DNA of 64,000 nucleotides from NCBI GenBank assembly GCA_963730845.1, contig CAVSTM010000003.1, positions 30,713-94,712 on the forward strand. Reading direction: 5' to 3'. Shown here piece after piece: positions 6,767 through 64,000 of the stretch. The number at the start of each line of letters is the position of its first letter. Positions within the stretch are counted from its first letter, which is position 1. The notes beneath the pieces are model-generated. The model searched no databases. It was not told the origin of the DNA and saw nothing but the letters and a program-made list of their open reading frames with translations. Made by a program: the position numbers and the translations under genes. Source of the DNA: an uncultured Acidobacteriaceae bacterium. GTDB lineage: Bacteria > Acidobacteriota > Terriglobia > Terriglobales > Acidobacteriaceae.

Positions 6767-7321
6767 ATGGATAAGATCCGGGCGCTCATTATGGATGATT
6801 CCTCGGTGATGCGCAAAATCGTCGAGCGTTCGCTGCGTCGGGCGGCCATCGAGCTGGAAAGGGTTATAGAAGCGTCGAATGGAGCCGAAGCGCTGGCCGC
6901 TTTGCAGAGCAACGTGGCCGAGCTCGTCCTCTGCGACATCAACATGCCGGACTCGCAATGGACCTCTGCCTGGGGCATCAACAATTCCGGAGAGGTGACT
7001 GTGCAATGGGGCGACCAGAATGGATTCTTCTGGGCGTCCCTTTACAACGGGTCGACCTTCACGTCGCTCACCGCTCCCGGCGGTTATAACACGGGCGTTC
7101 ATTCCATCAACACGGCGGGGGACATCATGTTCGTGTGGGGAGATCCCTACGGAAACAATCACGCCGCGCTTCTGAACGCGGGCTCGTACTTCGTCTTCGA
7201 TATGCCGGCGAGCCTGGGCTCGGGCACCGACGCTGATGGCCTGAACGACTCAGGTGCGATCGTCGGCCACTTCACTCCCACCGGAACCTCGGTCTTCGGG
7301 GCGTACGAGGGAAAGCTCTAG
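6767..7321 (+). CDS. chimeric ORF: first ~61 aa of a CheY-like receiver domain fused to HAF-type (INNSG/INTAG/LNDSG) repeats
   Basis: MDKIRALIMDDSSVMRKIVE...LVLCDINMPD matches beta1 to beta3 of a receiver domain and then stops abruptly. The rest carries GINNSGEVTV, SINTAGDIMFV and LNDSGAIVGH repeats. Confidence 0.5.
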   Translation: MDKIRALIMDDSSVMRKIVERSLRRAAIELERVIEASNGAEALAALQSNVAELVLCDINMPDSQWTSAWGINNSGEVTVQWGDQNGFFWASLYNGSTFTSLTAPGGYNTGVHSINTAGDIMFVWGDPYGNNHAALLNAGSYFVFDMPASLGSGTDADGLNDSGAIVGHFTPTGTSVFGAYEGKL

Positions 7322-9139: not shown

Positions 9140-9258
9140 TTTGCAACTTCTTTCCGTGACTGCGGGACGAGCCGGGTAAAAACCCCAGTTAACACAAAAC
9201 CCCTTTTCCGAATGGGAAAAGAGGCTCGGGATACGCGAAAAAATCGCTATCACCCGAA

Positions 9259-9369
9259 TCTCATGGTCCCCGTTACCGGGCGAGAGTTGGCACCTGCGAT
9301 TGAGATAGATGATCTCTATCCGGTTGCCGTGGCGTCCTAGGGCTCGTCCCTCAGCCACTCTGCATGAAA
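9259..9369 (-). promoter_or_regulatory. SAM-I (S-box) riboswitch aptamer
   Basis: Minus strand reads UUUCAUG CAGAG UGGCUGAGGGAC GAGCCC UAGGA CGCCAC GGCAACC ... GGUGCCAACUCUCGCCCGGUAACGGGG ACCAUGAGA. P1 pairing, the GAGGGA strand, the GCAACC and GGUGCCAA junctions and a GUAA-capped P4 are all present. Confidence 0.8.
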
Positions 9370-9504
9370 TTCCGATTTGCTCAAAAAAGAGCAAACTTGG
9401 GATCAAATACTACAACCGACCGAGCGGTCTGTCAAGGCAGAATTTCAGGCAGCCGGCGTCGGACAGCGAATGTGCGCCTGTTGCGAATGAGCAGGTAAAT
9501 TGCA

Positions 9505-14311: not shown

Positions 14312-15310
14312 ATGCAAGGATCGCGTAACGGCGAGAGCGCCGACCAGAACAAGATCGGAGGCCCCTCGCTCTACCTCGTAGCCACGCCCATCGGCAATCT
14401 CGAAGACATCACTCTGCGGGCCCTGCGCGTGCTCAAGGAAGTCGACCTGATCGCCTGCGAGGACACGCGCCAGACGCTGAAACTGCTCAACCATTACGGC
14501 ATCCAGACGCGACTGGTCAGCTATCACGAGCACAACGAGATGACCAAGGCCTCCGAATTGGTCGTTGACCTCGAAGGCGGCGCCAAGATTGCGCTGGTCA
14601 CCGACGCGGGCATGCCCGGCATATCCGACCCCGGATTCCGCCTGATCGCGCTCGCCATCCGGCATCATGTGCCGGTGGTGCCGATTCCCGGAGCGTCGGC
14701 GTTTCTGGCGGCTCTGGTGGCGAGCGGCCTGCCCACCGATTCCTTCCGCTTCAGCGGATTTCTCCCGGCCAAGGCAGGACAGCGCCGCAAGTTGCTGGAG
14801 AGCGTCAAAGACTCTCCGCGAACGCAGGTGTTCTACGAAGCGCCGCATCGGCTGCTGGAGACGCTTGCGGATGTTTCCGAGGTTCTGGGGAATGATCGTC
14901 ACGTAGTGGTCGCCCGCGAGGTGACGAAGATGCACGAAGAATTTCTGCGCGGTCGCGCGGGAGAAATTCTCGAACAGCTCAAAGCCCGAGGAGACGTCAA
15001 AGGGGAGATCACGCTGCTGATTGCGAAGGCCGAAGAGGGAGCAGTTCCGGCCGCATCCGAGGCGGTGAGCGTCGCACAGCGTGTGCGCGAAATCATGTCC
15101 GCCGAAAAGGCAGACGAAAAAGCCGCGCTGAAGAAAGTGGCCAAAGAGCGCGGGATCGGAAAGAGCGAAGCGTATCGCGAGTGGCAGCGGGAAACAAATA
15201 ACGAATCACGTAGGCCCGGCCGCATTCGTCCGGGACATGCGGGCGGGGAAACCAGTGGCGCGCAGGCAGAAGCTACTCGACCGTCAAAGTGGACAGTAAC
15301 GCCCATTTAG
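14312..15310 (+). CDS. rsmI: 16S rRNA (cytidine1402-2'-O)-methyltransferase RsmI, with repeat-encoded C-terminal extension
   Basis: LYLVATPIGNLEDITLRALRVLKEVDLIACEDTR matches the RsmI N-terminus. The last ~35 codons run into repeat element 15208..15373. Confidence 0.9.
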   Translation: MQGSRNGESADQNKIGGPSLYLVATPIGNLEDITLRALRVLKEVDLIACEDTRQTLKLLNHYGIQTRLVSYHEHNEMTKASELVVDLEGGAKIALVTDAGMPGISDPGFRLIALAIRHHVPVVPIPGASAFLAALVASGLPTDSFRFSGFLPAKAGQRRKLLESVKDSPRTQVFYEAPHRLLETLADVSEVLGNDRHVVVAREVTKMHEEFLRGRAGEILEQLKARGDVKGEITLLIAKAEEGAVPAASEAVSVAQRVREIMSAEKADEKAALKKVAKERGIGKSEAYREWQRETNNESRRPGRIRPGHAGGETSGAQAEATRPSKWTVTPI

Positions 15311-15373
15311 CCCCTCCAGATAATCTGTCGAGCTGCGCTCGGGGCGCGGACGAATGCGTCCGCCCCTACGTGG
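15208..15373. repeat. family B MITE-like element (termini CACGTAGG.../...CCTACGTGG, each arm a GGCGGACGxxxCGTCCGCC hairpin)
   Basis: Arms 15208..15240 and 15341..15373 are near-perfect inverted copies. Related copies are at 24603, 27201 and 46834. Confidence 0.75.
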
Positions 15374-15386
15374 TTCTTGCTGATTC

Positions 15387-15848
15387 CTACTTCCCCACCA
15401 ATTCCTTCTTAACCGCCTCGCTGACCACTTTGCCATCCACCCGCATCCCGGCGGCGGCGAAGCGGGCCATGGCGGCCTTCATCACCGTTCCCATGTCTTT
15501 CATGGCAGGAGCGGGCGTCATCTCGGCAATCGCCGCGCGGACTCCGGCTACGATTTCTTCTTCGCCGGCGGCCTTGGGTAGGTAGGTTTCGATCAGCTTG
15601 ATTTCGGCGGCTTCTTTGTCGGCCATCTCCTGACGTCCGCCCTTGGTGAACTGCTCGACCGAGTCTTTGCGCTGCTTGATCAGGGTGGAGAGCACTTGCT
15701 GCGATTCCTTGTCGTCGAGCGGCGCCATCTTGTCGATCTCTTTGTTCTTGAGCGCGGTCTTGACCATGCGCAGGGTGGAGAGGCGATGCTCTTCGCGGGC
15801 TTTCATGGCCGCGACGATGTCTTTTTGGATCTGGTCGATTAGGGGCAT
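15387..15848 (-). CDS. GatB/YqeY domain-containing protein
   Basis: Start moved to MPLIDQIQKDIVAAMKAREE (ATG 15848). Typical YqeY sequence (LSTLRMVKTALKNKEID...). Confidence 0.85.
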   Translation of the reverse strand: MPLIDQIQKDIVAAMKAREEHRLSTLRMVKTALKNKEIDKMAPLDDKESQQVLSTLIKQRKDSVEQFTKGGRQEMADKEAAEIKLIETYLPKAAGEEEIVAGVRAAIAEMTPAPAMKDMGTVMKAAMARFAAAGMRVDGKVVSEAVKKELVGK

Positions 15849-15860
15849 GGGAGAATTATA

Positions 15861-15944
15861 GAGGTCAGAGGTTCGATTGCAGAGGTGAAAACCATATGCA
15901 GCGAATGCTCTAACTTCTGCAATCTGACCTCTAACCTCTGACCT
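15861..15944. repeat. family C heptad-periodic inverted repeat (GAGGTCA GAGGTTC GATTGCA GAGGTGA ... mirror)
   Basis: Left arm GAGGTCAGAGGTTCGATTGCAGAGGT pairs with right arm ACTTCTGCAATCTGACCTCTAACCTCTGACC. Confidence 0.85.
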
Positions 15945-15986
15945 TCTGTTTCCCTCACCACACGCTTTCGAATATTCTGGTATCTC

Positions 15987-17185
15987 ATGCTCAAGAAGAA
16001 CAGGCTCTTCACTCCCGGACCAACGCCGCTGCTGCCGCAAGCCCAGATGGCGATGGCTTCCTATGGCGCGCACCATCGCACGGCCGAGTTCCGCTCGCTG
16101 TTCACGCGTGTTCTGGCCGACGTCAAGGAGTTCATCGGCACCAACAATGACGTGCTCGTGCTGACCTCGTCAGGCACGGGCTTCATGGAAGCCTCGGTCT
16201 CGAACCTGACTTCTCCGGGCGACCGAGTGCTGGTGTTGACCGCCGGCAAGTTCGGCGAGCGCTGGACCGCGCTGGCCAAGGCGTTTGGTTGCGCCGTGGA
16301 GACGGTAACCGCTCCCTATGGCGAAACGTTTTCGATTGAGGAAGTGCGCCGCAAACTGACGCCCGAGATTCGCTGCGTTTATGTGCAGGCGACCGAGAGT
16401 TCCACGGGCGCGCGGCATGACGTTGAGGCGATCGCAAAACTGGTGCGAACTTCGTATATCCGGACACCTTATTGATCGTCGACGCGATCACTGGGCTGGG
16501 CACGACCCATCTCGACGTGGACGGTTGGGGAATCGACATCATCATTGGTGGCTCGCAGAAGGCGCTGATGATCCCGCCCGGACTGGCCTATGGCGCCATC
16601 AGCGAGCGGGCGTGGCAGCGCATGGAGACGACGAAGTCTCCGCGGTATTACTTCGATCTGCGGAAGGAACGAAAAGCGGCGGCCAAGGCGGAGACGACAA
16701 GCACGCCCGCGACCTCTCTGTTTGCCGGAATGGCCGCAGCGCTCGATTATGTGCGTCAAATGGGAGACGGGAACCTCGCGGAGGGGCGAGACGCGCTGAT
16801 CGCGAACGCGGAGTTGTGCGCGGCCATGACACGCGCCGGCGTCGAAGCGCTGAGGCTGAAGTTGTTCGCGTCGAGTTCTCCGGCGGCCGCTCTGACGGCC
16901 GTCGCTGCGCCGGCCGGCATCGATTCCACGACCATTTGCAAACGCTTCCGCGAGCAGTTTGGCGCGGTCGTGGCCAACGGAAATGCGGAGTTGAAAGGAC
17001 AGCTTTTCCGCATCGCTCACATCGGCTACTACGATTATCTGGACACGGTGGGAGTGCTGGCCGCACTCGAACATGTGATCGCCGAAACCACGGGGAATGC
17101 GGTCGAGTACGGATGCGCGGTGAGGGCGGCGCAGGAAGTTTATGCGAAGGCGAAGACTGCAGATCCCTCGCTGCGCTCGGGATGA
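15987..17185 (+). pseudogene. class V aminotransferase (serine-pyruvate/alanine-glyoxylate type) with one apparent frameshift
   Basis: ORF 15987..16475 (LFTPGPTP..., ...EAIAKLVRTS) continues in ORF 16472..17185 as ...YPDTLLIVDAITGLG...GGSQKAL. The break is at ~16455..16462 in a TATAT run. Confidence 0.8.
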
Positions 17186-17211
17186 CAAGCCTTCAAGAAG
17201 TGGAAAGATTT

Positions 17212-27200: not shown

Positions 27201-27337
27201 CCACGTAGGAACAGCCGCCCCGGCTGTCCAGGCGAGCACAGCTCGCCCACGGTTTCGTTTGCAACATGTTCCGCATTGTAAAGAGCGTCGCGGGGCTTTG
27301 CCCCGCTGGGACAGCCGAGGGCGGCTGTCCCTACGTG
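27201..27337. repeat. family B-type MITE-like element (CCACGTAGGAACAGCCGCCCCGGCTGTCC ... GGGACAGCCGAGGGCGGCTGTCCCTACGTGG)
   Basis: Terminal inverted repeats of ~29 nt are visible, with additional hairpins inside. Confidence 0.8.
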
Positions 27338-28446
27338 GAACAATACTTCTCGTACTGCTGATAGATGAACGGGTCGGTCATGCCGGCGATGTAATCGCAG
27401 ATGACGCGGGGCAACGGCTCCTGGGCGGCTTTTTCGCGGTAGTTGCGCGGGAGGTCGTCGGGCTCTTCCATCCAGTGGGCAAAGAGCTCTCCGGTGATAC
27501 GCTCGGCATCTTCTTTCTCTCCCGCCAATGCTACGCTGTAGTAAAGATTTTCGTAGAGAAAGTCTTTCAGCCGGCGGCGCTGCTCTTCGACAGGCGGACT
27601 GAACGCGGCTAGCCGCTCGGTGTGTTGGCGAACATCTCGAAGAGAATGCAAGCCTGCCGTTTCGGTGCGCTGTGCCGTGCTCGTAATCAGGTCTCCGACA
27701 AATCCGTCAAGAATACTTTTCAACGCCTCGTTAAAGACCAGCTTCTCGGCAACATTCGGGTAGCGGCTTTTTGCCTCGTCGTAATGGCGCTTGAACAGAT
27801 CTACGCTGTCTGCGATCTGCTCGACCGTGAGCAGGCGGGCTTCGTAGCCATCGTCCAGGTCAGCGGTGTTGTAGGCAATCTCGTCGGTAAGATCGATGAG
27901 CTGCGCTTCGAGCGGCGGACGCTGATCGAGCACGTACTCGGCGAGTTCGGGATGATCTTCAATGTCGTAATCGTGCGAGTGTTTGATGATGCCCTCGCGG
28001 ACTTCGAAGGTCAGATTCAGCCCGCGGAATGACGCGTAGCGAAGTTCGAAGTCTTCGACAATGCGGAGCGCGTGCAGGTTGTGATCGAACGAAAGCCCGT
28101 GTTGACGCATGGCAGTGTCGAGCGCTTTTTCGCCGGAGTGGCCGAACGGAGGATGGCCGAGATCGTGCACCAGGGCGAGCGCCTCCACCAGATCGGTGTT
28201 CAGGCCAAGTTGCGCGGCGATGGTGCGCGAAATCTGCGCTACTTCGATGGTGTGCGTCAACCGGTTGCGGAAGTGGTCGGAGTAACGGCGGGTAAAGACC
28301 TGGGTCTTCGCTTCCAGTCGGCGAAAGGCGCGGGCGTGGACGACACGGTCGCGATCGCGTTGAAAGTCGTTGCGGTAGGGATGAGGCGGCTCGGGATGGC
28401 GGCGTCCGCGGGAATTTTCTACGCGCACCGCATGGTCGGCGAGCAT
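27331..28446 (-). CDS. dGTP triphosphohydrolase-like HD-domain protein
   Basis: RRHPEP...FQRDRDRVVHARAFRRLEAKTQVF...LTHTIEVAQI...VHDLGHPPFGH. Confidence 0.9.
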   Translation of the reverse strand: MLADHAVRVENSRGRRHPEPPHPYRNDFQRDRDRVVHARAFRRLEAKTQVFTRRYSDHFRNRLTHTIEVAQISRTIAAQLGLNTDLVEALALVHDLGHPPFGHSGEKALDTAMRQHGLSFDHNLHALRIVEDFELRYASFRGLNLTFEVREGIIKHSHDYDIEDHPELAEYVLDQRPPLEAQLIDLTDEIAYNTADLDDGYEARLLTVEQIADSVDLFKRHYDEAKSRYPNVAEKLVFNEALKSILDGFVGDLITSTAQRTETAGLHSLRDVRQHTERLAAFSPPVEEQRRRLKDFLYENLYYSVALAGEKEDAERITGELFAHWMEEPDDLPRNYREKAAQEPLPRVICDYIAGMTDPFIYQQYEKYCST

Positions 28447-30727: not shown

Positions 30728-30903
30728 GAAAAATCCTGCAACCTGCAAATTCCAGCCCACATGCTAGTTGGATGCTGATCCGCGGCAATCCGGATTTCCT
30801 TATTCTACCCTTGACCGGCCTTTTGGCGGGAAGAAAGCGCAGTATGGGACTGAAGCCGGAAGTACAGCGGCTTTGGAAGGCCAGTGTCAACAAAAATTAG
30901 GGA

Positions 30904-32455
30904 CTAATGCCGGAAATGCCGCACCCCGGTAAAGATCATGGCCAATCCGAGACGGTCGGCGGCTTCGATCACCTCCTGGTCGCGCACCGAGCCCCCGGGC
31001 TGAATGATGGCGGTGGCACCTGTTTTGGCGATTTCCTCGACGCCATCCGGGAAGGGGAAGAAGGCGTCCGAGGCGGCCACCGTGCCTTTCAGCGGCAACT
31101 GTGCCTTCATGGCGCCCAGCCTGCAGGAATCGACGCGGCTCATTTGCCCGGCACCGACCCCCACCGTTTGGCCGTCGCGGGCGTAGAGAATGGCGTTCGA
31201 CTTTACGTGCTTGCATACCTTCCACGCGAAGAGCAGCGCCCGTTTTTCTTCCGGCGTCGGCGGGCGCTTGGTCACAACCTTCAGATCGGCTTCGGTCAGC
31301 TGGTGGAGATCGGAATCCTGTACGAGCATGCCTCCAGAAATATTTTTCAGGACCCAGTTCTGCTGCCCCGCAGGAACCTCGACCAGCCGCAGATTCTTCT
31401 TTGCGGCAAACGCCGCTTTCGCGCCTTCGTCGAATGCGGGAGCGGCGATGACTTCGAGGAAGAGCTTGGCCATTTCGCTCGCGGCCGCGGCATCGACTGC
31501 GCGGTTCACTCCGATCACTCCACCAAATGCCGACACGGCATCGCATTCGAGCGCCCGCATATAAGCCTCGGCGAGCGTCTTCGCCGGTTGCGGTTCCGCA
31601 GGGATTTGTGTGTTTGATAATGGCGCAGACCGGCTCGTTAAATTCCTGCGCCAGATCCCAGGCGGCTTGCAGGTCGACAATGTTGTTATAGGAAAGCTCT
31701 TTGCCTTGTACCTGGCGCGCGTTCGCGACGCCCACGCCTGTGGCGTCCGCGTACATGGCGGCCTTCTGGTGAGGATTCTCTCCATAGCGCAGGTCGGCTA
31801 CCTTTTGAAACGCCAGTCGCAGATTTTTGGGAAAGCCTTGAGCGGAATGCATCTCGAAGTCGGAGCCCACTCGCTCCAGCGTCGAGGCGATGGCCGAGTC
31901 GTACGCTGCGGTCGTAGCAAACGCCTTCTGCGCCAGCCGCCACTTCGTCTCGCGAGACAACGCGCCGCCCGAGTAGCCCATCTCTTCGGCGATCGCGTCG
32001 TAATCGGCAGGCGAAGTCACGACTGCGACATCCTGAAAATTCTTCGCTGCTGAACGAATCATTGAAGGGCCGCCGATGTCGATGTTTTCAACCAGTTCGT
32101 TGAAATGCGCGCCCGGCTTGGCAGCCGTTTTTTCAAAGGCATACAGGTTGACGACCACCATGTCGATGGCCGCAATGCCATGCTCGGCGACCGCCGCGCG
32201 ATGGCTGCTATCTTCACGGCGATAGAGAATGCCTCCGTGAACCTTGGGATGTAGCGTCTTGACGCGCCCGTCCAGCATTTCAGGGAACCCGGTCAGTTCC
32301 GAAATGTCTTTGACGGGGATGCCGGACTCCCGCAACTGCTTGGCCGTGCCTCCGGTCGAAACCAGCTCCACGCCGAAAGCGACGAGTTTGTGGGCGAAAT
32401 CTACCAGTCCGGATTTGTCGGTAACGCTGAGAATGGCGCGCTGGATTTTAGACAT
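30904..32455 (-). pseudogene. purH: bifunctional AICAR transformylase/IMP cyclohydrolase PurH with one apparent frameshift
   Basis: MSKIQRAILSVTDKSGLVDFA...[11 protein letters not shown] | (K/E)[25 protein letters not shown]...FTGVRHFRH*. The break is at ~31580..31586. The Arg-rich tail of the 522-aa ORF is out-of-frame read-through. Confidence 0.85.
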
Positions 32456-34220: not shown

Positions 34221-34565
34221 TTATTTCGAGCTGCTTGCCATCTTCTTCACCATGGCCAGCACCAGCTTCCGGTCGCTGTCGTTCAGATTGGCCGAATAGC
34301 GGCGCATCTGGCTCAGGAAGCGGACTTCATCGTCGGAGAGCTGCGGCAAACCCTTATGGCCGTTGCTGCTGCCTTCGGCAAAGAATTGCGACAAGGCCAA
34401 ATCCATCGCCCCAGCGATCTTGGCGAGCGTGTCCAGCGAAGGGATGGTGTGGCCGTTTTCGACGCGCGACAGGTAGCAGCGCAACAGGCCAGTGCGCTTT
34501 TCGATGTCGCCCTGTGACATGCTTCGCTGGAGCCGGAAATTGCGGATGGTCTCGCCGATGTTCAT
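34221..34565 (-). CDS. XRE-family helix-turn-helix transcriptional regulator
   Basis: IRNFRLQRSMSQGDIEKRTGLLRCYLSRVENGHTIPSLDTLAKIAGAMD is a canonical Cro/C1 HTH. Confidence 0.85.
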   Translation of the reverse strand: MNIGETIRNFRLQRSMSQGDIEKRTGLLRCYLSRVENGHTIPSLDTLAKIAGAMDLALSQFFAEGSSNGHKGLPQLSDDEVRFLSQMRRYSANLNDSDRKLVLAMVKKMASSSK

Positions 34566-36863: not shown

Positions 36864-36982
36864 GAGAGTGGTGGGAATAGAGCGCCCTGCGGCAGTGTGA
36901 ATCGTGTAGGGATCTTTCGACTTCCAGGCTGCTGCGCTTCGCACAGCTGCCACTCCGCTCAGGATGACAGGGGTTTCAGTTT

Positions 36983-37690
36983 GTGGCTTTACTGAAGGCA
37001 GAGTTCTTCAATCGCGACCCGCGTCGGGTGGCGCGGGCATTGCTAGGGAAATTGTTGGTCCGGAAAACGCCTCGCGGAATTCTGGCGGGACGAATTGTCG
37101 AAACCGAAGCCTATCTTGGCCAAGGCGATGCGGCGGCGCACGCGGCGGCGGGCCGGACGGCGCGAAATTTCGTTCTGTTTGGACCTCCCGGTCACGCCTA
37201 CGTGTACTTCATCTATGGCAATCACTACTGCCTGAATGTTTCCTGTTTGCCCGACGGAATGCCCGGAGGCGTGCTGTTTCGCGCCCTGGAGCCGGTGGCT
37301 GGCATCGAGTCGATGGCGAAGGCGCGAGGCGTCGACGTAGCGAAGAAAATTGATCTCAAGAACATTTCGTGGCTGAGGAAGATTTCGTCCGGCCCGGGTC
37401 GCATGTCCGAAGCTCTGGGAATCACCCGCGAGCGGGATAACGGCAAAAACATGGTAAGCGTGCGCTCTGATCTACGGATTGCCGATGACGGCTATCGCGT
37501 CCGAGGAGTAATGGTCACGCCGCGAATTGGGATCGTGAAGTCAGCCGAGCAACCGTTGCGCTTTCTTATCGCGGGAAATCCATTCGTCTCCGGGCGGAGG
37601 TCTGTAGCAGCTTCGATGTCGGGCCAGCAACAAAGAGAAACTACAACCGCAACGGGGCCCGAGATGCGGCGGTTGATTTGCGATGAATGA
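36983..37690 (+). CDS. mpg: DNA-3-methyladenine glycosylase (Mpg/AAG family)
   Basis: GTG start. FFNRDPRRVARALLGKLLV...GRIVETEAYLG..DAAAHA...GHAYVYFIYGNHYCLNV. Confidence 0.85.
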   Translation: MALLKAEFFNRDPRRVARALLGKLLVRKTPRGILAGRIVETEAYLGQGDAAAHAAAGRTARNFVLFGPPGHAYVYFIYGNHYCLNVSCLPDGMPGGVLFRALEPVAGIESMAKARGVDVAKKIDLKNISWLRKISSGPGRMSEALGITRERDNGKNMVSVRSDLRIADDGYRVRGVMVTPRIGIVKSAEQPLRFLIAGNPFVSGRRSVAASMSGQQQRETTTATGPEMRRLICDE

Positions 37691-41103: not shown

Positions 41104-43032
41104 ATGAGTCGCAGAAACATAGTCTGGGTAGCAGGTCCCTGTTTTATTGGAACCGTATTCCTCTTTCATCTGGCGGGGCTTGCGTCGGCACAGGCGCTTC
41201 CCGCGACCACGCAAAGGATAGAGCAGGAGACAAAGACAACGTACCAAGCCCGCGACGGCGAGGCGTTAGTGCTGCTTTCCGTGTTCGCGGAGAATGGCAA
41301 GACTCACCTTGAGCGGCAGGCGGTCATAAAGATCACGAACCAGATCAATAACACCGTCGTCTGGCAGACCACTGACGAAAAATCGGAAGCGGCACTCGGT
41401 CTACTTTTCGGCAAGTACGAACTCGAAATAAGCGCGGTCGGGTATTTGACCGAGCGCAAAGAAGTTCAAGCCAGTAACGTGCTCGTTACGACTCGGATAG
41501 AAGTCTCACTGCATCGTGATCCCCAGGCTGTCGACCTCAACGTATCCGATGAGGCGGTTCCTGCAAAAGCGCGCGGAGCCCTCAAGCATGGCGTTTCCGC
41601 GCTCAAATCCGCGAATCTCAAGGAAGCACGAAAGAGCCTGGATGCGGCGTACAAGCTGGCGCCGTCGAATCCGGATATCAACTATCTCCTGGGCTATGTA
41701 GCCTATGAGGAAAAAAACCTCGCCCAGGCCAAGAGCTATCTCGCAACCTCTGCCAATCTCAGTACCCACAACGTGCGGGCGCTGATCCTCCTCGGCCAAG
41801 TAGAGCTTGTACAAGAAGACTATTCCGGGGCTGCGGCGACGCTGGAAAAAGCGGTGGAGGCCAATTCCGACAATTGGACGGCGCACAGCCTGCTTGCCAA
41901 TGCGTACCTGAAACTGAAGAAATATGATGAGGCTCGGCAGCAAGCTGAATTGGCCATCGCCAAAGGGAAAGGCGCGGCTAACGCAGCAAATCTGGCTCTG
42001 GGACAGGCCCTGGTGAATCTGGGGAAGAAGGAAGCAGGTATCCAGGCGCTCGAGAGTTTCGTCCGGAATTCACCCAGCGACCCCACCGTCCCGCAAGTGC
42101 GCGACCTGATCGCCAAGCTCGAGCGACCCGACGCTGCTCCTGGCCCGGGTACCGCGATCGTGCGGACCTCTGCGCCCGTCATCGACCCAATATTCGCCAC
42201 TCCTGAACTCCCGGTCTCCGTCAATCCGTGGCGACCCGCTGGAATCGATGAAGAAAAACCGTCTGTTGCCGATGGGGTCAGTTGCCCCCTCGACAGCGTA
42301 ATCGAGATGTCGGGTGAGCGGGTGAAGCAGTTGGTAGACGATGTCTCGCGGATTTCCGCAATCGAACGCCTGGTGCACGAGCAGGTGGATGAAATGGGGA
42401 ACGCCCTTACCAAGGAAACCCGAAGCTACGATTATGTCGCGTCCATCTCGGAGGAAAAACCGGGGTACCTTGCGGTGGACGAAAACCGGTTAGAGCGCAT
42501 GGCGCGTGCCGACTTTCCCGACCGGATCGCCAGCGGCGGGTTTGCCACGTTGGCCCTGGTATTTCATCCCGACATGCGGGAAAACTTCGAGATGACGTGC
42601 GAAGGACTGGGAAAATGGCATGGGCAAGCAGCGTGGTTGGTTCACTTCAAGCAGCGAGCAGACCGGCCTGCCCTTATCAGCGAGTACAACATAGGTGGCG
42701 AAACGTATTCATTGCGACTGAAGGGCCGCGCCTGGATTGCGGCGGACAAATTTGAAATCGTGCGAATTGAGTCAGAACTGATAGATCCGATGCCGCAGAT
42801 CCAGTTGCGTTGTGAGCAACAGGTGGTGGAGTACGGCCCGGTCCAGTTCAAGAAAAATGTGGGATTGTGGCTTCCAACGAAGGCGGAAATCTACCTCGAC
42901 TATCGCAAGCACCGCTATTACCGCAGCCACAGCTACGATCATTACATGCTGTTTTCGGTGGATATGGTGGACAAGCCGAACGAGCCCAAGGTGCCACCGA
43001 CCGAGCCCACCACGAAGCCGATAGCCAACTAA
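41104..43032 (+). CDS. secreted CarboxypepD_reg-like + TPR + unknown C-terminal domain protein (paralog 1)
   Basis: Signal peptide (FLFHLAGLASAQA), then an N-terminal beta-sandwich-like segment (GKYELEISAVGYL), TPR repeats, and a ~270-aa C-terminal domain conserved with the next gene. Confidence 0.7.
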   Translation: MSRRNIVWVAGPCFIGTVFLFHLAGLASAQALPATTQRIEQETKTTYQARDGEALVLLSVFAENGKTHLERQAVIKITNQINNTVVWQTTDEKSEAALGLLFGKYELEISAVGYLTERKEVQASNVLVTTRIEVSLHRDPQAVDLNVSDEAVPAKARGALKHGVSALKSANLKEARKSLDAAYKLAPSNPDINYLLGYVAYEEKNLAQAKSYLATSANLSTHNVRALILLGQVELVQEDYSGAAATLEKAVEANSDNWTAHSLLANAYLKLKKYDEARQQAELAIAKGKGAANAANLALGQALVNLGKKEAGIQALESFVRNSPSDPTVPQVRDLIAKLERPDAAPGPGTAIVRTSAPVIDPIFATPELPVSVNPWRPAGIDEEKPSVADGVSCPLDSVIEMSGERVKQLVDDVSRISAIERLVHEQVDEMGNALTKETRSYDYVASISEEKPGYLAVDENRLERMARADFPDRIASGGFATLALVFHPDMRENFEMTCEGLGKWHGQAAWLVHFKQRADRPALISEYNIGGETYSLRLKGRAWIAADKFEIVRIESELIDPMPQIQLRCEQQVVEYGPVQFKKNVGLWLPTKAEIYLDYRKHRYYRSHSYDHYMLFSVDMVDKPNEPKVPPTEPTTKPIAN

Positions 43033-45890: not shown

Positions 45891-45967
45891 GGGTTGTCGA
45901 CTGTCGATTGTCGTGGAACTGTTGAGCAGAATATATGGCTTCGCGTCGCGATGCAATTGTGAAGAAA

Positions 45968-46055
45968 AAGTCAAAAGTCAGAAGTCAAATTGAAGAAGTT
46001 GTTCTCAGTTTCCGGTTCGGTTCACTTCTGCAATCTGACTTCTGACTTTTGACTT
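45968..46055. repeat. family C heptad-periodic inverted repeat (AAAGTCA AAAGTCA GAAGTCA AATTGAA GAAGT ... mirror)
   Basis: Right arm ACTTCTGCAATCTGACTTCTGACTTTTGACTT is the complement of the left arm. Confidence 0.85.
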
Positions 46056-46072
46056 CCCTATACAATCTCCTC

Positions 46073-48188: not shown

Positions 48189-48233
48189 GAGTCCTCCACC
48201 GTTTCGATCAATATTACAGCGGCGGGCGTGTGT

Positions 48234-48336
48234 GAGGTCAGAGGTGAGAGGTCAGATTGCAGAGGTAAGAGCTTCGCAGTGCCGGCAGCGTTCGCCGTTG
48301 GTCTTCAGCTCTGCAATCTGACCTTTAACCTCTGCC
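48234..48336. repeat. family C heptad-periodic inverted repeat
   Basis: GAGGTCAGAGGTGAGAGGTCAGATTGCAGAGGTAAGAGC ... CAGCTCTGCAATCTGACCTTTAACCTCTGCCC. Confidence 0.85.
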
Positions 48337-48348
48337 CTTTCTGTCGCC

Positions 48349-61568: not shown

Positions 61569-62003
61569 ATGCGCTTCGATGATCCGACTCTCTACGGTCG
61601 GGACGATGAGACGGACGAGTACAGCGACAGCGGCGCTTATGGCGAATCGCTGGAAGAAGATTTGGACGAGGAAGAAGAAGAGGAAGAGGAGCCTACCCTC
61701 TTAGAGGAGGGCGACGAGCTTCCCGTGCCTCTAGCGGAACCCGTGCGAGCACCTGCGCCCGTAACTCCATCGGGTGGCGGCGGGAGCCAGGGCGGACCTC
61801 CGAAGAAGAAGGCCCCGGCCAAGAAAGCCCCGGCCAAGAAGGCGCCTGCCAAGAAAAAAGCGGCAAAGAAAAAGAAAGCGGCGAAGAAGCCGAAGAAAGC
61901 CGCCAAGAAACCCGCCCGGAAAAAAGCAGCCGCGAAGAAGAAAGCGCCGAAAAAGCCGGCACGAAAAAAAGCGGCGCGCAAGAGGGGCGGTCGCCGCCGT
62001 TAG
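61569..62003 (+). CDS. bipolar low-complexity protein: acidic N-terminal half, histone H1-like AKKAP/KKAA C-terminal half
   Basis: AGGAGGAGAT-ATG. DEEEEEEEEP run followed by KKKAPAKKAPAKKAPAKKKAAKKKKAAKKPKKAAKKPARKK... Confidence 0.7.
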   Translation: MRFDDPTLYGRDDETDEYSDSGAYGESLEEDLDEEEEEEEEPTLLEEGDELPVPLAEPVRAPAPVTPSGGGGSQGGPPKKKAPAKKAPAKKAPAKKKAAKKKKAAKKPKKAAKKPARKKAAAKKKAPKKPARKKAARKRGGRRR

Positions 62004-62759: not shown

Positions 62760-63314
62760 ATGGAGATTCCGGAGACGCATCCGCTGCAGCAACTGTTTGT
62801 TGAACTCGTCGGCCGTCATTATGCCGAGGAGATTGGAATTCGCGATCCGCAAGTCGTGAGCTACGTCGCGCATCTGCTCTCCGAGTTTTGCGATGCTGAG
62901 CAGCTTTTGAGGATCCGCAACGCAGCGGGGAAGCCGTTGAACGATGTCGGCGAGATGCTGATCGAATCGGACCCGATCTACGGCCCGGCACCCTCGTTCG
63001 ATCGCGAGCGCCAGGTTCGTAAGCACATTGGCGACTTCACGCTGTTTTACGCCGGCATGTTCCCGGAGAGCATCAATCACTATCGCCTGCGCCGCCAGCG
63101 CGTCGAGAACTTCGTGGATTGGGTGAAAGCCGGAAAAGAAAGCTATTACATCGTGTCGAAGTTCGAGCACTTCGAATACGCCAAGGTGGCGCCGCTGTTC
63201 GCGCAACTCTCGCAAAGGTTTGAACAGTGCGTTTATGGACTAAACCTGGTGAAGAACGAACTTGAAGTGATGCAGCACCCGATCGCGAGGATGAGCAACG
63301 AACTGATAATGTAG
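62760..63314 (+). CDS. conserved hypothetical protein
   Basis: Start at MEIPETHPLQQ. 184 aa, helical, protein-like composition. No family recognised. Confidence 0.55.
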   Translation: MEIPETHPLQQLFVELVGRHYAEEIGIRDPQVVSYVAHLLSEFCDAEQLLRIRNAAGKPLNDVGEMLIESDPIYGPAPSFDRERQVRKHIGDFTLFYAGMFPESINHYRLRRQRVENFVDWVKAGKESYYIVSKFEHFEYAKVAPLFAQLSQRFEQCVYGLNLVKNELEVMQHPIARMSNELIM

Positions 63315-63568
63315 GAGAAGTCAGAGGTCAGAAAGTAAATTGAAGAAGTAAAACCCTTTGCCTCTCGGACGGACGCGACAAAGCTCGCAACGAGTTCTTT
63401 GGCTTCCTGAACTGTCGCGCGCCACTTTTCCTCGGGGAAGATTCCAGCATCCTGCATCCACTCCAGCCAGAAGGCGGTTTCGCCGGCTTCTTCCAGCACA
63501 ATACCGAGTTTGGCGACGAGTAGCGCAAACCTTCGTGTCCACTCCTGCAGTTTCTCAAACTGTTCCAC
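63233..63568 (-). pseudogene. four-helix-bundle protein (23S rRNA intervening-sequence protein family), C-terminal half only
   Basis: ...VAKLGIVLEEAGETAFWLEWMQDAGIFPEEKWRATVQEAKELVASFVASVREAK resembles the helix 3-4 consensus of that family. Only ~60 nt remain between the ORF start and the right arm, so the N-terminal half is missing. The 3' part of the ORF (63233..63352) is read-through into the repeat and the neighbouring gene. Confidence 0.55.
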
Positions 63569-63672
63569 TCCTGAAACCTACCGCCTGCCTGCTCAATTGG
63601 CAGTGACTCTTCTCACACTCAGATTGGTCGGTTTTACTTCTTCAATTTAACTTCCGACTTCTGAGTTTTCAC
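63316..63672. mobile_element. family C inverted-repeat cassette carrying a truncated four-helix-bundle (23S rRNA IVS-type) gene
   Basis: Left arm GAGAAGTCAGAGGTCAGAAAGTAAATTGAAGAAGTAAAACC (63316..63352) is the complement of right arm GGTTTTACTTCTTCAATTTAACTTCCGACTTCTGAG (63630..63668). Confidence 0.5.
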
Positions 63673-64000
63673 CATCCGCCTGCCGCTGATCTCGAATTTT
63701 CCTTCCAGCGCAATTCTGATCGCTTCGGAGTATGCGATGTGTTCCTGCTCGAGAATGCGCGCGGCGAGCGTGTGCTCGTCATCAGAGTCCAGCACCGGTA
63801 CAGTTTTTTGCACGATGATCGCGCCATGATCGAGCTCCTCATCCACGAAGTGCACCGTGCACCCGGACACCTTTACGCCGTAGGCAAACGCTTGGTGCTG
63901 CGCTTCGAGTCCCGGAAAGGACGGTAGCAGCGATGGATGAATGTTGAGAATTTTCGCCGGAAACTGTTGCACGAACCAGGGCGAGAGCAGGCGCATGTAG
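63634..64000 (-). CDS. purN: phosphoribosylglycinamide formyltransferase PurN, C-terminal part (5' end outside window)
   Basis: ILNIHPSLLPSFPGL...GVKVSGCTVHFVDEELDHGAII. The last residues (KTQKSEVKLKK) are encoded by the family C repeat arm. Confidence 0.88.
   Translation of the reverse strand, partial: YMRLLSPWFVQQFPAKILNIHPSLLPSFPGLEAQHQAFAYGVKVSGCTVHFVDEELDHGAIIVQKTVPVLDSDDEHTLAARILEQEHIAYSEAIRIALEGKFEISGRRMVKTQKSEVKLKK

Follow-up and report, generated by a model that had tools for sequence, protein, structure and literature searches.

A 64 000 nt stretch from the genome of an uncultured Acidobacteriaceae bacterium (GenBank assembly GCA_963730845.1, contig CAVSTM010000003.1, positions 30713–94712; hereafter the window) carries a gene-bearing cassette at 63315–63670, lying between the gene purN and a convergent neighbour and bounded by inverted repeats built from tandem heptads. 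Its layout is a heptad arm, a short leader, a 121-aa gene and an inverted heptad arm overlapping the last six codons of that gene, which belongs to the four-helix-bundle family known from the intervening sequences (IVSs) of 23S ribosomal RNA (rRNA). The cassette is a non-rRNA variant of the IVSs that bear an open reading frame (ORF). The window locus is a long-resident, decaying copy of it, while most relatives are intact and under purifying selection. The window copy is a pseudogene relic, and the interest lies in the class that it reveals. The descriptive part of this account is very probable; the account as a whole, comprising a family of decaying cassettes and an RNA mechanism like that of the IVSs, is somewhat favoured. 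The cassette and its neighbours comprise the following features.

62761–63314, plus strand: convergent flanking gene of about 184 aa with no Pfam family, adjoining the cassette across Terriglobales.
63315–63355, minus strand: 3' arm, the inner part coding for GFTSSI and the outer end abutting the TAG stop codon at 63312–63314.
63338–63568, minus strand: remnant of the four-helix-bundle gene, with a GTG start, codons 1–17, a deletion and about 59 C-terminal codons.
63569–63629, minus strand: leader from the 5' arm to the start codon, conserved among copies.
63630–63670, minus strand: 5' arm, with the heptads GAAAACTCA GAAGTCG GAAGTTA AATTGAA GAAGTAA AACC, coding for the last 11 residues of purN (KTQKSEVKLKK) and its stop codon (63634–63636).
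63634–64000, minus strand: 3' part of purN (phosphoribosylglycinamide formyltransferase), running past the end of the window, with a C-terminal tail made of arm sequence.

The arms bracket 274 nt at the place where the original prediction, made from the letters of the window alone, had located an inverted-repeat cassette. They had been described as exact complements of each other; 35 of their 41 positions are complementary (85 %), and the match is exact over the inner 20 nt only. The heptad periodicity was borne out, with lag 7 or 14 giving the highest autocorrelation (shuffle P=0.016 and 0.03), and the arm sequence of the cassette can be written in heptads as GAGAAGTCA GAGGTCA GAAAGTA AATTGAA GAAGTAA. 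A 19 nt core of the arm occurs twice in the window, both times in this cassette, against a chance expectation of 0. In RNA folding predictions the arms pair on either strand (z=-3.7 and -4.1), and their remaining complementarity means that a predicted stem of about 40 bp can form on either. The cassette occupies the whole of the spacer between the two convergent genes, and one arm does code for the end of purN, as had been proposed. The identity of purN is supported by PF00551 (E=5e-36) and by TIGR00639 (model positions 89–190), and the tails of its orthologues vary along with the arm sequence. The syntenic counterpart of the convergent gene in the related locus L004 encodes 185 aa, and the flanks are 80–92 % identical.

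The assignment of the enclosed gene to the four-helix-bundle (IVS) family was upheld by one of the two profiles named beforehand and by homology. The minus-strand ORF (63233–63568) scored 24.5 bits against TIGR02436, for which the cut-off is 24, and aligned with model positions 55–108 only; its score against PF05635 was 16.5 bits, under the cut-off of 33.8. Intact relatives score 66–89 bits, clearly past the family cut-off. Among 5.8 billion proteins searched, 70 homologues were found, with identities of up to 83 %, almost all of them 121-aa PF05635 proteins, and those with a taxon name all came from Acidobacteriales/Terriglobales. The family profile also matched PDB entry 2RLD (E=1.5e-25), the nearest solved structure in sequence terms, whose deposition comprises five chains. 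Judged by its homologues, the ORF in the window is probably a pseudogene member of the PF05635/TIGR02436 family.

The ORF had been thought to be truncated at its 5' end. Instead, it has kept its leader and GTG start along with codons 1–17; the middle of the gene is missing, and the sequence resumes in frame to the terminal KGFTSSI. Comparison with the closest intact orthologue (L057, 87 % identical) revealed one in-frame gap of 132 nt, with its junction between 63520 and 63519. The 44 deleted codons include the core RSGTSIGANYR, the counterpart at this locus of the GxxRxxxSxxxNxxE region that forms the core motif of the family (PMC3936711). A TCGTC repeat lies near both deletion ends in L057, although it does not reproduce the exact junction observed. 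The original stop codon (63335–63337, TGA in the L057 comparison) is now TAC, so that the frame extends to 63233 and reads on into the neighbouring gene. Having lost 44 codons and its stop, the window copy would be unable to make a normal protein. In every relative the six C-terminal codons lie in the inner 3' arm, and KGFTSSI is invariant. Intact genes, including the same-site orthologues L004, L057 and L123, have ratios of non-synonymous to synonymous substitution (dN/dS) of 0.05–0.11 at dS of about 1–2. Intact copies of the protein are functional by this measure.

The same arms, 35–44 nt long and 90–95 % complementary, surround the intact genes of L001, L004, L005, L057 and L123, and contigs that encode intact relatives have them at three different sites. 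L004 is syntenic with the window, with the order purM, purN, cassette, hypothetical gene and RidA-type (L-PSP) gene. The arms are not unique to this locus, since a search of 185 579 species genomes with a degenerate arm pattern gave at least 119 matching stretches; all 80 loci among the matches listed were metagenome-assembled genomes of Terriglobia (Terriglobales or Acidobacteriaceae). These listed loci contained about 100 non-overlapping elements, mostly hairpins of 60–170 bp with a few gene-bearing units of 480–516 bp. A protein-based scan of metagenomes provided 76 further gene copies with enough flanking sequence. In 59 of them the arms reached 25 nt or more and 80 % identity or more; lag 7 was the top period in 67. 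Two sub-lineages were distinguished, each with its own protein clade, one with AAG-type heptads (GAAGTCA, AATTGAAGAAGT) and the other with AGG-type heptads (GAGGTCA, GATTGCAGAGGT).

The two arms of an element change together. All heptads of one arm carry the same variant, single elements have unique variants common to both arms, and the arms agree at polymorphic positions in 0.9 of elements versus 0.5 expected. Among 85 elements there were 277 cells with changes in both arms versus 152±14 after shuffling of columns, and none of 500 shuffles reached as high a value. The arms also stay heptadic and complementary over divergences of dS about 1–2. Like the protein, they are under selection.

In total, 92 gene-bearing copies represent only about 15 conserved sites. 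The junction between purN and the hypothetical gene accounts for 41 copies, and their orientation relative to the flanks is identical in all 41. The small number of sites and the fixed orientation indicate that inheritance has been mainly vertical, and recent mobility of the cassette is not evident. A Terriglobales ancestor gained the cassette at the exact point separating the purN stop codon from that of the convergent gene. Flank comparison showed that this junction carries an element in all sampled genomes, in forms of different length.

About 485 bp: L004 and L057, and L065 with frameshifts in the gene.
516 bp: L123.
350 bp: the window.
About 190–240 bp: L016, with repeated arms and no gene.
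About 85–90 bp: L014, L025 and L032.

What the short forms retain is the arms together with the initial leader bases and the final ORF bases. Together with the series of lengths, this indicates that the arm-only hairpins at this site are derivatives formed by deletion in place, and they therefore need not be independently mobile miniatures.

Arm-only miniatures elsewhere in the window, to which the original prediction had also pointed, were found at three places, and all three belong to the repeat family of the cassette.

15859–15945: AGG-type hairpin between divergent genes; fold z=-6.8 and -6.7.
45966–46057: AAG-type hairpin between divergent genes, with 32 nt arms (94 % complementary) and a 24 nt loop; orthologous site kept in L043 and L046; fold z=-6.8 and -8.5.
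48233–48340: AGG-type hairpin (GAGGTCA heptads); orthologous site kept in L047; fold z=-7.0 and -7.3.

Counting the cassette, the window has four copies, of which two miniatures sit between divergent genes. Resolved contexts of the miniatures numbered 9 convergent, 13 tandem and 1 divergent; of the 88 flanks that could be resolved, 54 faced a gene 3' end. These counts are rough because the context classifier, based on base composition at third codon positions (GC3), left many flanks unresolved.

Hairpins or arrays with other heptads were seen at L063 (about 1050–1120), L014 (about 6955–7040), L057 (6650–6690) and L025 (1560–1600). Their heptads are AGTGGTT/AGTGATT, TTGTGAT/TCGCAAT and CTCCGTG (three copies), and in other Terriglobales the GARGTCA family fills their sites. 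The L063 hairpin likewise supplies the end of the gene upstream of it. These hairpins may be the arms of other cassette lineages. A separate family of intergenic hairpins resembling repetitive extragenic palindromes (REPs), with the pattern GTCATCC[CT]GAGCG ... CGCTCGGGATGAC, was found at about 17150–17210 and 36870–37000 in the window and at 2190–2300 in L004, and some of its sites carry a heptad hairpin in other genomes. Two inverted repeats in the window, at 15203–15376 and 27201–27338, share the motif CACGTAGG...GCCGCC (GAATCACGTAGGCCCGGCCGCATTCGTCCG and CCACGTAGGAACAGCCGCCC) and may represent a third dispersed hairpin family.

The leader contains a palindrome, TGTGA-N6-TCACT (63602–63617, minus strand), centred about 41.5 nt upstream of the start codon. 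Its GTGA and TCAC halves are invariant in an alignment of eight cassette copies, and it lies 40.5–41.5 nt upstream of the start in many metagenomic copies. A -10-like box, TAGGTT (63575–63580, minus strand; TAGNTT among copies), ends 6 nt before the GTG, which leaves no space for a Shine–Dalgarno sequence. Judged from these sequence features, the leader may resemble a class II activator-dependent promoter of the CRP/FNR type that gives a leaderless mRNA. The evidence for this putative internal promoter is its conservation; a scan for sigma-70 consensus promoters found nothing at the arms or in the leader.

To place the cassette outside Acidobacteria, the intact protein was compared by tblastn with 72 556 plasmids. 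Matches were found in 32 records from Cyanobacteria, Chloroflexota, Bacteroidota, Spirochaetota and Bacillota. At 14 of 16 inspected loci (from Cyanobacteria, Chloroflexota, Spirochaetota and Bacillota), the best flanking inverted repeat had a top period of 7; at the other two, Bernardetia and Chondrinema, which were both of the Bacteroidota plasmid loci inspected, there was no clear long heptad inverted repeat. The heptad sequence is lineage-specific among these loci.

Nostoc flagelliforme and Dolichospermum: TAATTCG, five copies, 33–35 nt, 100 % complementary.
Aulosira: AAATTCA, five copies.
Nostoc ATCC 53789: CAATTCG, five copies.
Nostoc punctiforme: GARGTCG, 44 nt.
Euhalothece: ACCAGTG.
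Chlorohelix plasmid 1: GATGAAG-like.
Treponema: GGAAAGN.
Monoglobus: TTAG-periodic.

The gene was co-oriented with both of its neighbours at 12 of the 16 plasmid loci, for example between genes for a helicase and a methylase, DUF1156 and Swt1-HEPN, csx2 and cas1, hsdS and hsdR, or an RND adaptor and a permease. This fits co-transcription with the surrounding genes. A cassette occupies the DUF1156/Swt1-HEPN junction of a defence-type operon both in the cyanobacterium Gloeocapsa (L127) and on a Chloroflexota plasmid, that of Chlorohelix (L133); either the operon moved as a whole, insert included, or insertions struck the site more than once. In L140 (Nostoc sp. ATCC 53789 pNsp_c, 964–1860), the CAATTCG cassette has a 76-aa 'DNA cytosine methyltransferase' fragment on one side and a 92-aa ORF on the other, both of which run into the arms, and it may have split a protein-coding gene.

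The short tandemly repeated heptanucleotide (STRR) sequences of cyanobacteria are tandem 7 nt repeats in the intergenic DNA of Nostocales. Arrays of this general kind on Nostoc plasmids flank four-helix-bundle genes or form inverted pairs without a gene. A 50 kb stretch of one Nostoc plasmid has heptad arrays at both of its four-helix-bundle genes and a gene-less inverted pair with the same heptad. In L221 (Nostoc flagelliforme pNFSY06), gene-less inverted pairs and lone heptad arrays were seen at 15754–15963, 30757–30950, 34398–34434 and 42448–42479, and some of them share a heptad with the arms of nearby four-helix-bundle genes; these arrays may be linked to the STRR heptamers. No paper linking STRR sequences to the four-helix-bundle gene family was found in the literature searched.

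The ORF-bearing 23S IVSs of Leptospira, Coxiella burnetii and Xanthomonas share with the cassette the PF05635/TIGR02436 family, a size class of about 430–490 nt, terminal inverted repeats that enclose the ORF in a stem of about 28–40 bp, tandem heptamers of variable copy number in the stem region, a weak or absent Shine–Dalgarno sequence, and an ORF that decays by internal deletion while the stem persists. The Coxiella IVS is 428 nt long and has a 28 bp terminal stem in which RNase III cuts; just upstream of its S23p ORF are tandem GACAGAT heptamers, whose number varies. The ORF has a poor ribosome-binding site and is decaying, with a 176 bp deletion in one strain (PMC4990558). The likeness to an IVS that had been proposed for the window, a gene between long complementary arms, therefore holds and extends to the heptamers of the stem region. 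The cassette differs in its position among protein-coding genes (a convergent junction in the window, operons in other phyla), in the strong purifying selection on the intact Terriglobales gene, which seemingly has its own promoter, and in the numerous arm-only hairpins that it leaves around the genome. Excision by RNase III has been demonstrated for the IVS, whereas for the cassette it is suggested by analogy. The non-rRNA context was also as predicted: no rRNA was detected in the window at Rfam gathering thresholds, and conserved 16S/23S motifs were absent from 220 related loci, the lone one-mismatch hit, a chance one, lying in the window itself, where Rfam shows no rRNA.

The nature and role of bacterial rRNA IVSs and S23p ORFs have been an open question since the early 1990s (PMC4990558). 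Genes annotated 23S_rRNA_IVP occur inside cas loci, where they have been treated as associated functions (PMC3936711), and in the rRNA inserts of candidate phyla radiation bacteria, where they have been treated as rRNA-insert ORFs. The literature searched, which was of limited coverage and so leaves novelty unproven, did not report heptad-periodic inverted arms as a general property, nor did it describe non-rRNA cassettes or their decay into hairpin repeats. Three other candidates were rejected. An invertible segment is ruled out by the fixed orientation of the 41 copies at the purN junction. A scan for intrinsic terminators found none at either arm, the stems being AG/CT-rich with no T runs after them. 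For a known RNA family, Rfam offered nothing beyond snoRNA hits at chance level, whether gathering thresholds or E≤1 was applied.

The preferred explanation is that the cassette acts as a 23S rRNA IVS relocated to spacers between protein-coding genes. The arms would pair in any transcript that crosses the cassette and loop the gene out, and the long duplex (at least 35 bp) would be a substrate of RNase III, so that the insert would be cut from the host transcript. Because the insert lies between genes, its excision would need no religation, which would make the insertion tolerable; the same logic of tolerance would let IVSs reside in rRNA. At convergent junctions, both host mRNAs would gain a large 3' stem, and the acidobacterial gene would be expressed from what seems to be its own promoter inside the arms. 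This RNA-level mechanism, which is drawn by analogy, is given slightly less than an even chance. Several points weigh against it. Cleavage of the cassette by RNase III is itself proposed only from the likeness to the IVSs, and no cassette copy in the window or the 220 related loci lies in rRNA. The stem forms equally on both strands and as DNA, and an RNA-level role is therefore not singled out. The covariation of the arms partly reflects the division into AAG-type and AGG-type sub-lineages and not only independent compensatory changes. Finally, if the putative promoter inside the arms is used, the gene's own transcript would start past the 5' arm and would have no stem.

It is possible, though on balance unlikely, that the cassette is a mobile element at the DNA level, with the arms as terminal inverted repeats or hairpin recombination sites for a trans-acting enzyme or for the cassette protein, and with the gene-less hairpins as independently spreading copies, as in miniature inverted-repeat transposable elements (MITEs) or REPs. 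The parallel is with REPtrons, which also have one gene between inverted copies of a dispersed repeat; REPs and bacterial interspersed mosaic elements (BIMEs) are likewise abundant, imperfect intergenic hairpins that persist at conserved sites, and MITEs are short, non-autonomous derivatives whose terminal inverted repeats are also those of a longer element with a gene. The abundance and dispersal of the hairpins (four in the 64 kb window and the many Terriglobales matches) and the presence of gene-bearing copies at about 15 different sites are consistent with this, as is the patchy spread across phyla and plasmids, often within defence operons (PMC3936711). At one gene's 3' end, L091 and L063 carry different families of heptad hairpin in almost identical positions, which suggests repeated insertion with a target preference. 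However, the cassette encodes no transposase or recombinase; the sole gene of full-length copies is that for the 121-aa four-helix-bundle protein, whereas the RAYT gene of a REPtron encodes a Y1 (IS200/IS605-like) transposase. We know of no catalytic activity in the four-helix-bundle family. The arms are tandem heptad arrays of about 35–45 nt, in contrast to REP palindromes of about 20–35 nt. At five orthologous junctions compared with and without the element, no target-site duplication was seen and no clean empty site could be defined, since the spacers could not be aligned or held other hairpin families. Copies are mostly vertical, at fixed sites and in fixed orientation, and at least some of the hairpins are deletion products of gene-bearing copies; at the sole site with a full series the miniatures formed in place, with no evidence of transposition.

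A further explanation, also considered improbable and not mutually exclusive with a DNA element, is that selection acts on the hairpin, which would serve the host in the manner of a REP or BIME, as a bidirectional transcription barrier, a 3'-end stabilizer or a processing site, with the gene as a dispensable passenger. The arms outlast the gene at the purN site and at many sites conserved across genomes, the miniatures favour gene 3' ends, and at eight of nine resolved gene-bearing sites the 3' end of the cassette gene faces a convergent gene. The predicted stems are also very stable (-40 to -60 kcal/mol). Against this, there is no U-tract and the terminator scan was negative at the arms, and half of the window copies lie between divergent genes. 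The strong purifying selection on the intact gene argues that it is not a mere passenger, and a generic hairpin role leaves unexplained the 7 nt period, which is kept across phyla with unrelated heptads.

That the locus is the remnant of a diversity-generating retroelement (DGR) is very improbable. The accessory protein Avd of these retroelements falls in the same Pfam family as the cassette protein, according to a review of DGRs (PMC10053308). The cassette, however, consists of one gene that stands by itself between inverted heptad arrays, which are not a template/variable repeat pair. Its neighbours in the window and in the syntenic relative are purM–purN, a RidA-type (L-PSP) gene and the conserved hypothetical gene, and no reverse transcriptase lay beside the gene in 19 annotated or gene-called loci, among which no systematic search for one was made.

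A more speculative reading, put forward tentatively as it is unlikely, concerns the period itself, which would be the recognition code of the cassette protein. A homopentameric four-helix-bundle ring would bind about five heptads, one per subunit, in the manner of TRAP with its repeated triplets. By attaching to one arm in single-stranded form, RNA or DNA, the protein would determine if pairing between the arms takes place, with consequences for processing, translation or propagation, and heptad and protein would co-evolve by lineage. The 23S IVSs, the genes lodged in CRISPR, restriction–modification and other operons, the cyanobacterial heptamers and the acidobacterial REP-like hairpins would then be one widespread system of selfish cassettes. 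In keeping with this, the arms are commonly about 35 nt, or five heptads, and 2RLD has five chains; the heptad type follows the protein clade in Terriglobales, and the variant is uniform within an arm.

These findings point to rRNA as just one of the habitats of a wider type of cassette, whose constant and unusual mark is its inverted tandem-heptad arms. In six or more phyla it also lies between ordinary genes and within operons, some of them for defence. Decay of such cassettes leaves stable hairpin repeats that are able to give codons to neighbouring genes, as in the tail of purN. For annotation, four-helix-bundle genes within cas or restriction–modification loci may be insertions rather than functional partners. 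It is now possible to test the binding of heptads by the protein, the arms as RNase III sites, and the cyanobacterial heptamers and acidobacterial hairpins as relics of cassettes.

Elsewhere in the window, an S-adenosylmethionine (SAM) riboswitch (RF00162, 70 bits) was detected at 9258–9370 on the minus strand and was the sole Rfam family at the gathering threshold. A plus-strand ORF at 61569–62003 encodes a protein whose N-terminal half is acidic and whose long tail is rich in Lys, Ala and Pro (KKAPAKKAPAKK...), resembling histone H1 or AlgP, and within this ORF the AT skew reaches up to +1.0 over 61800–61950.

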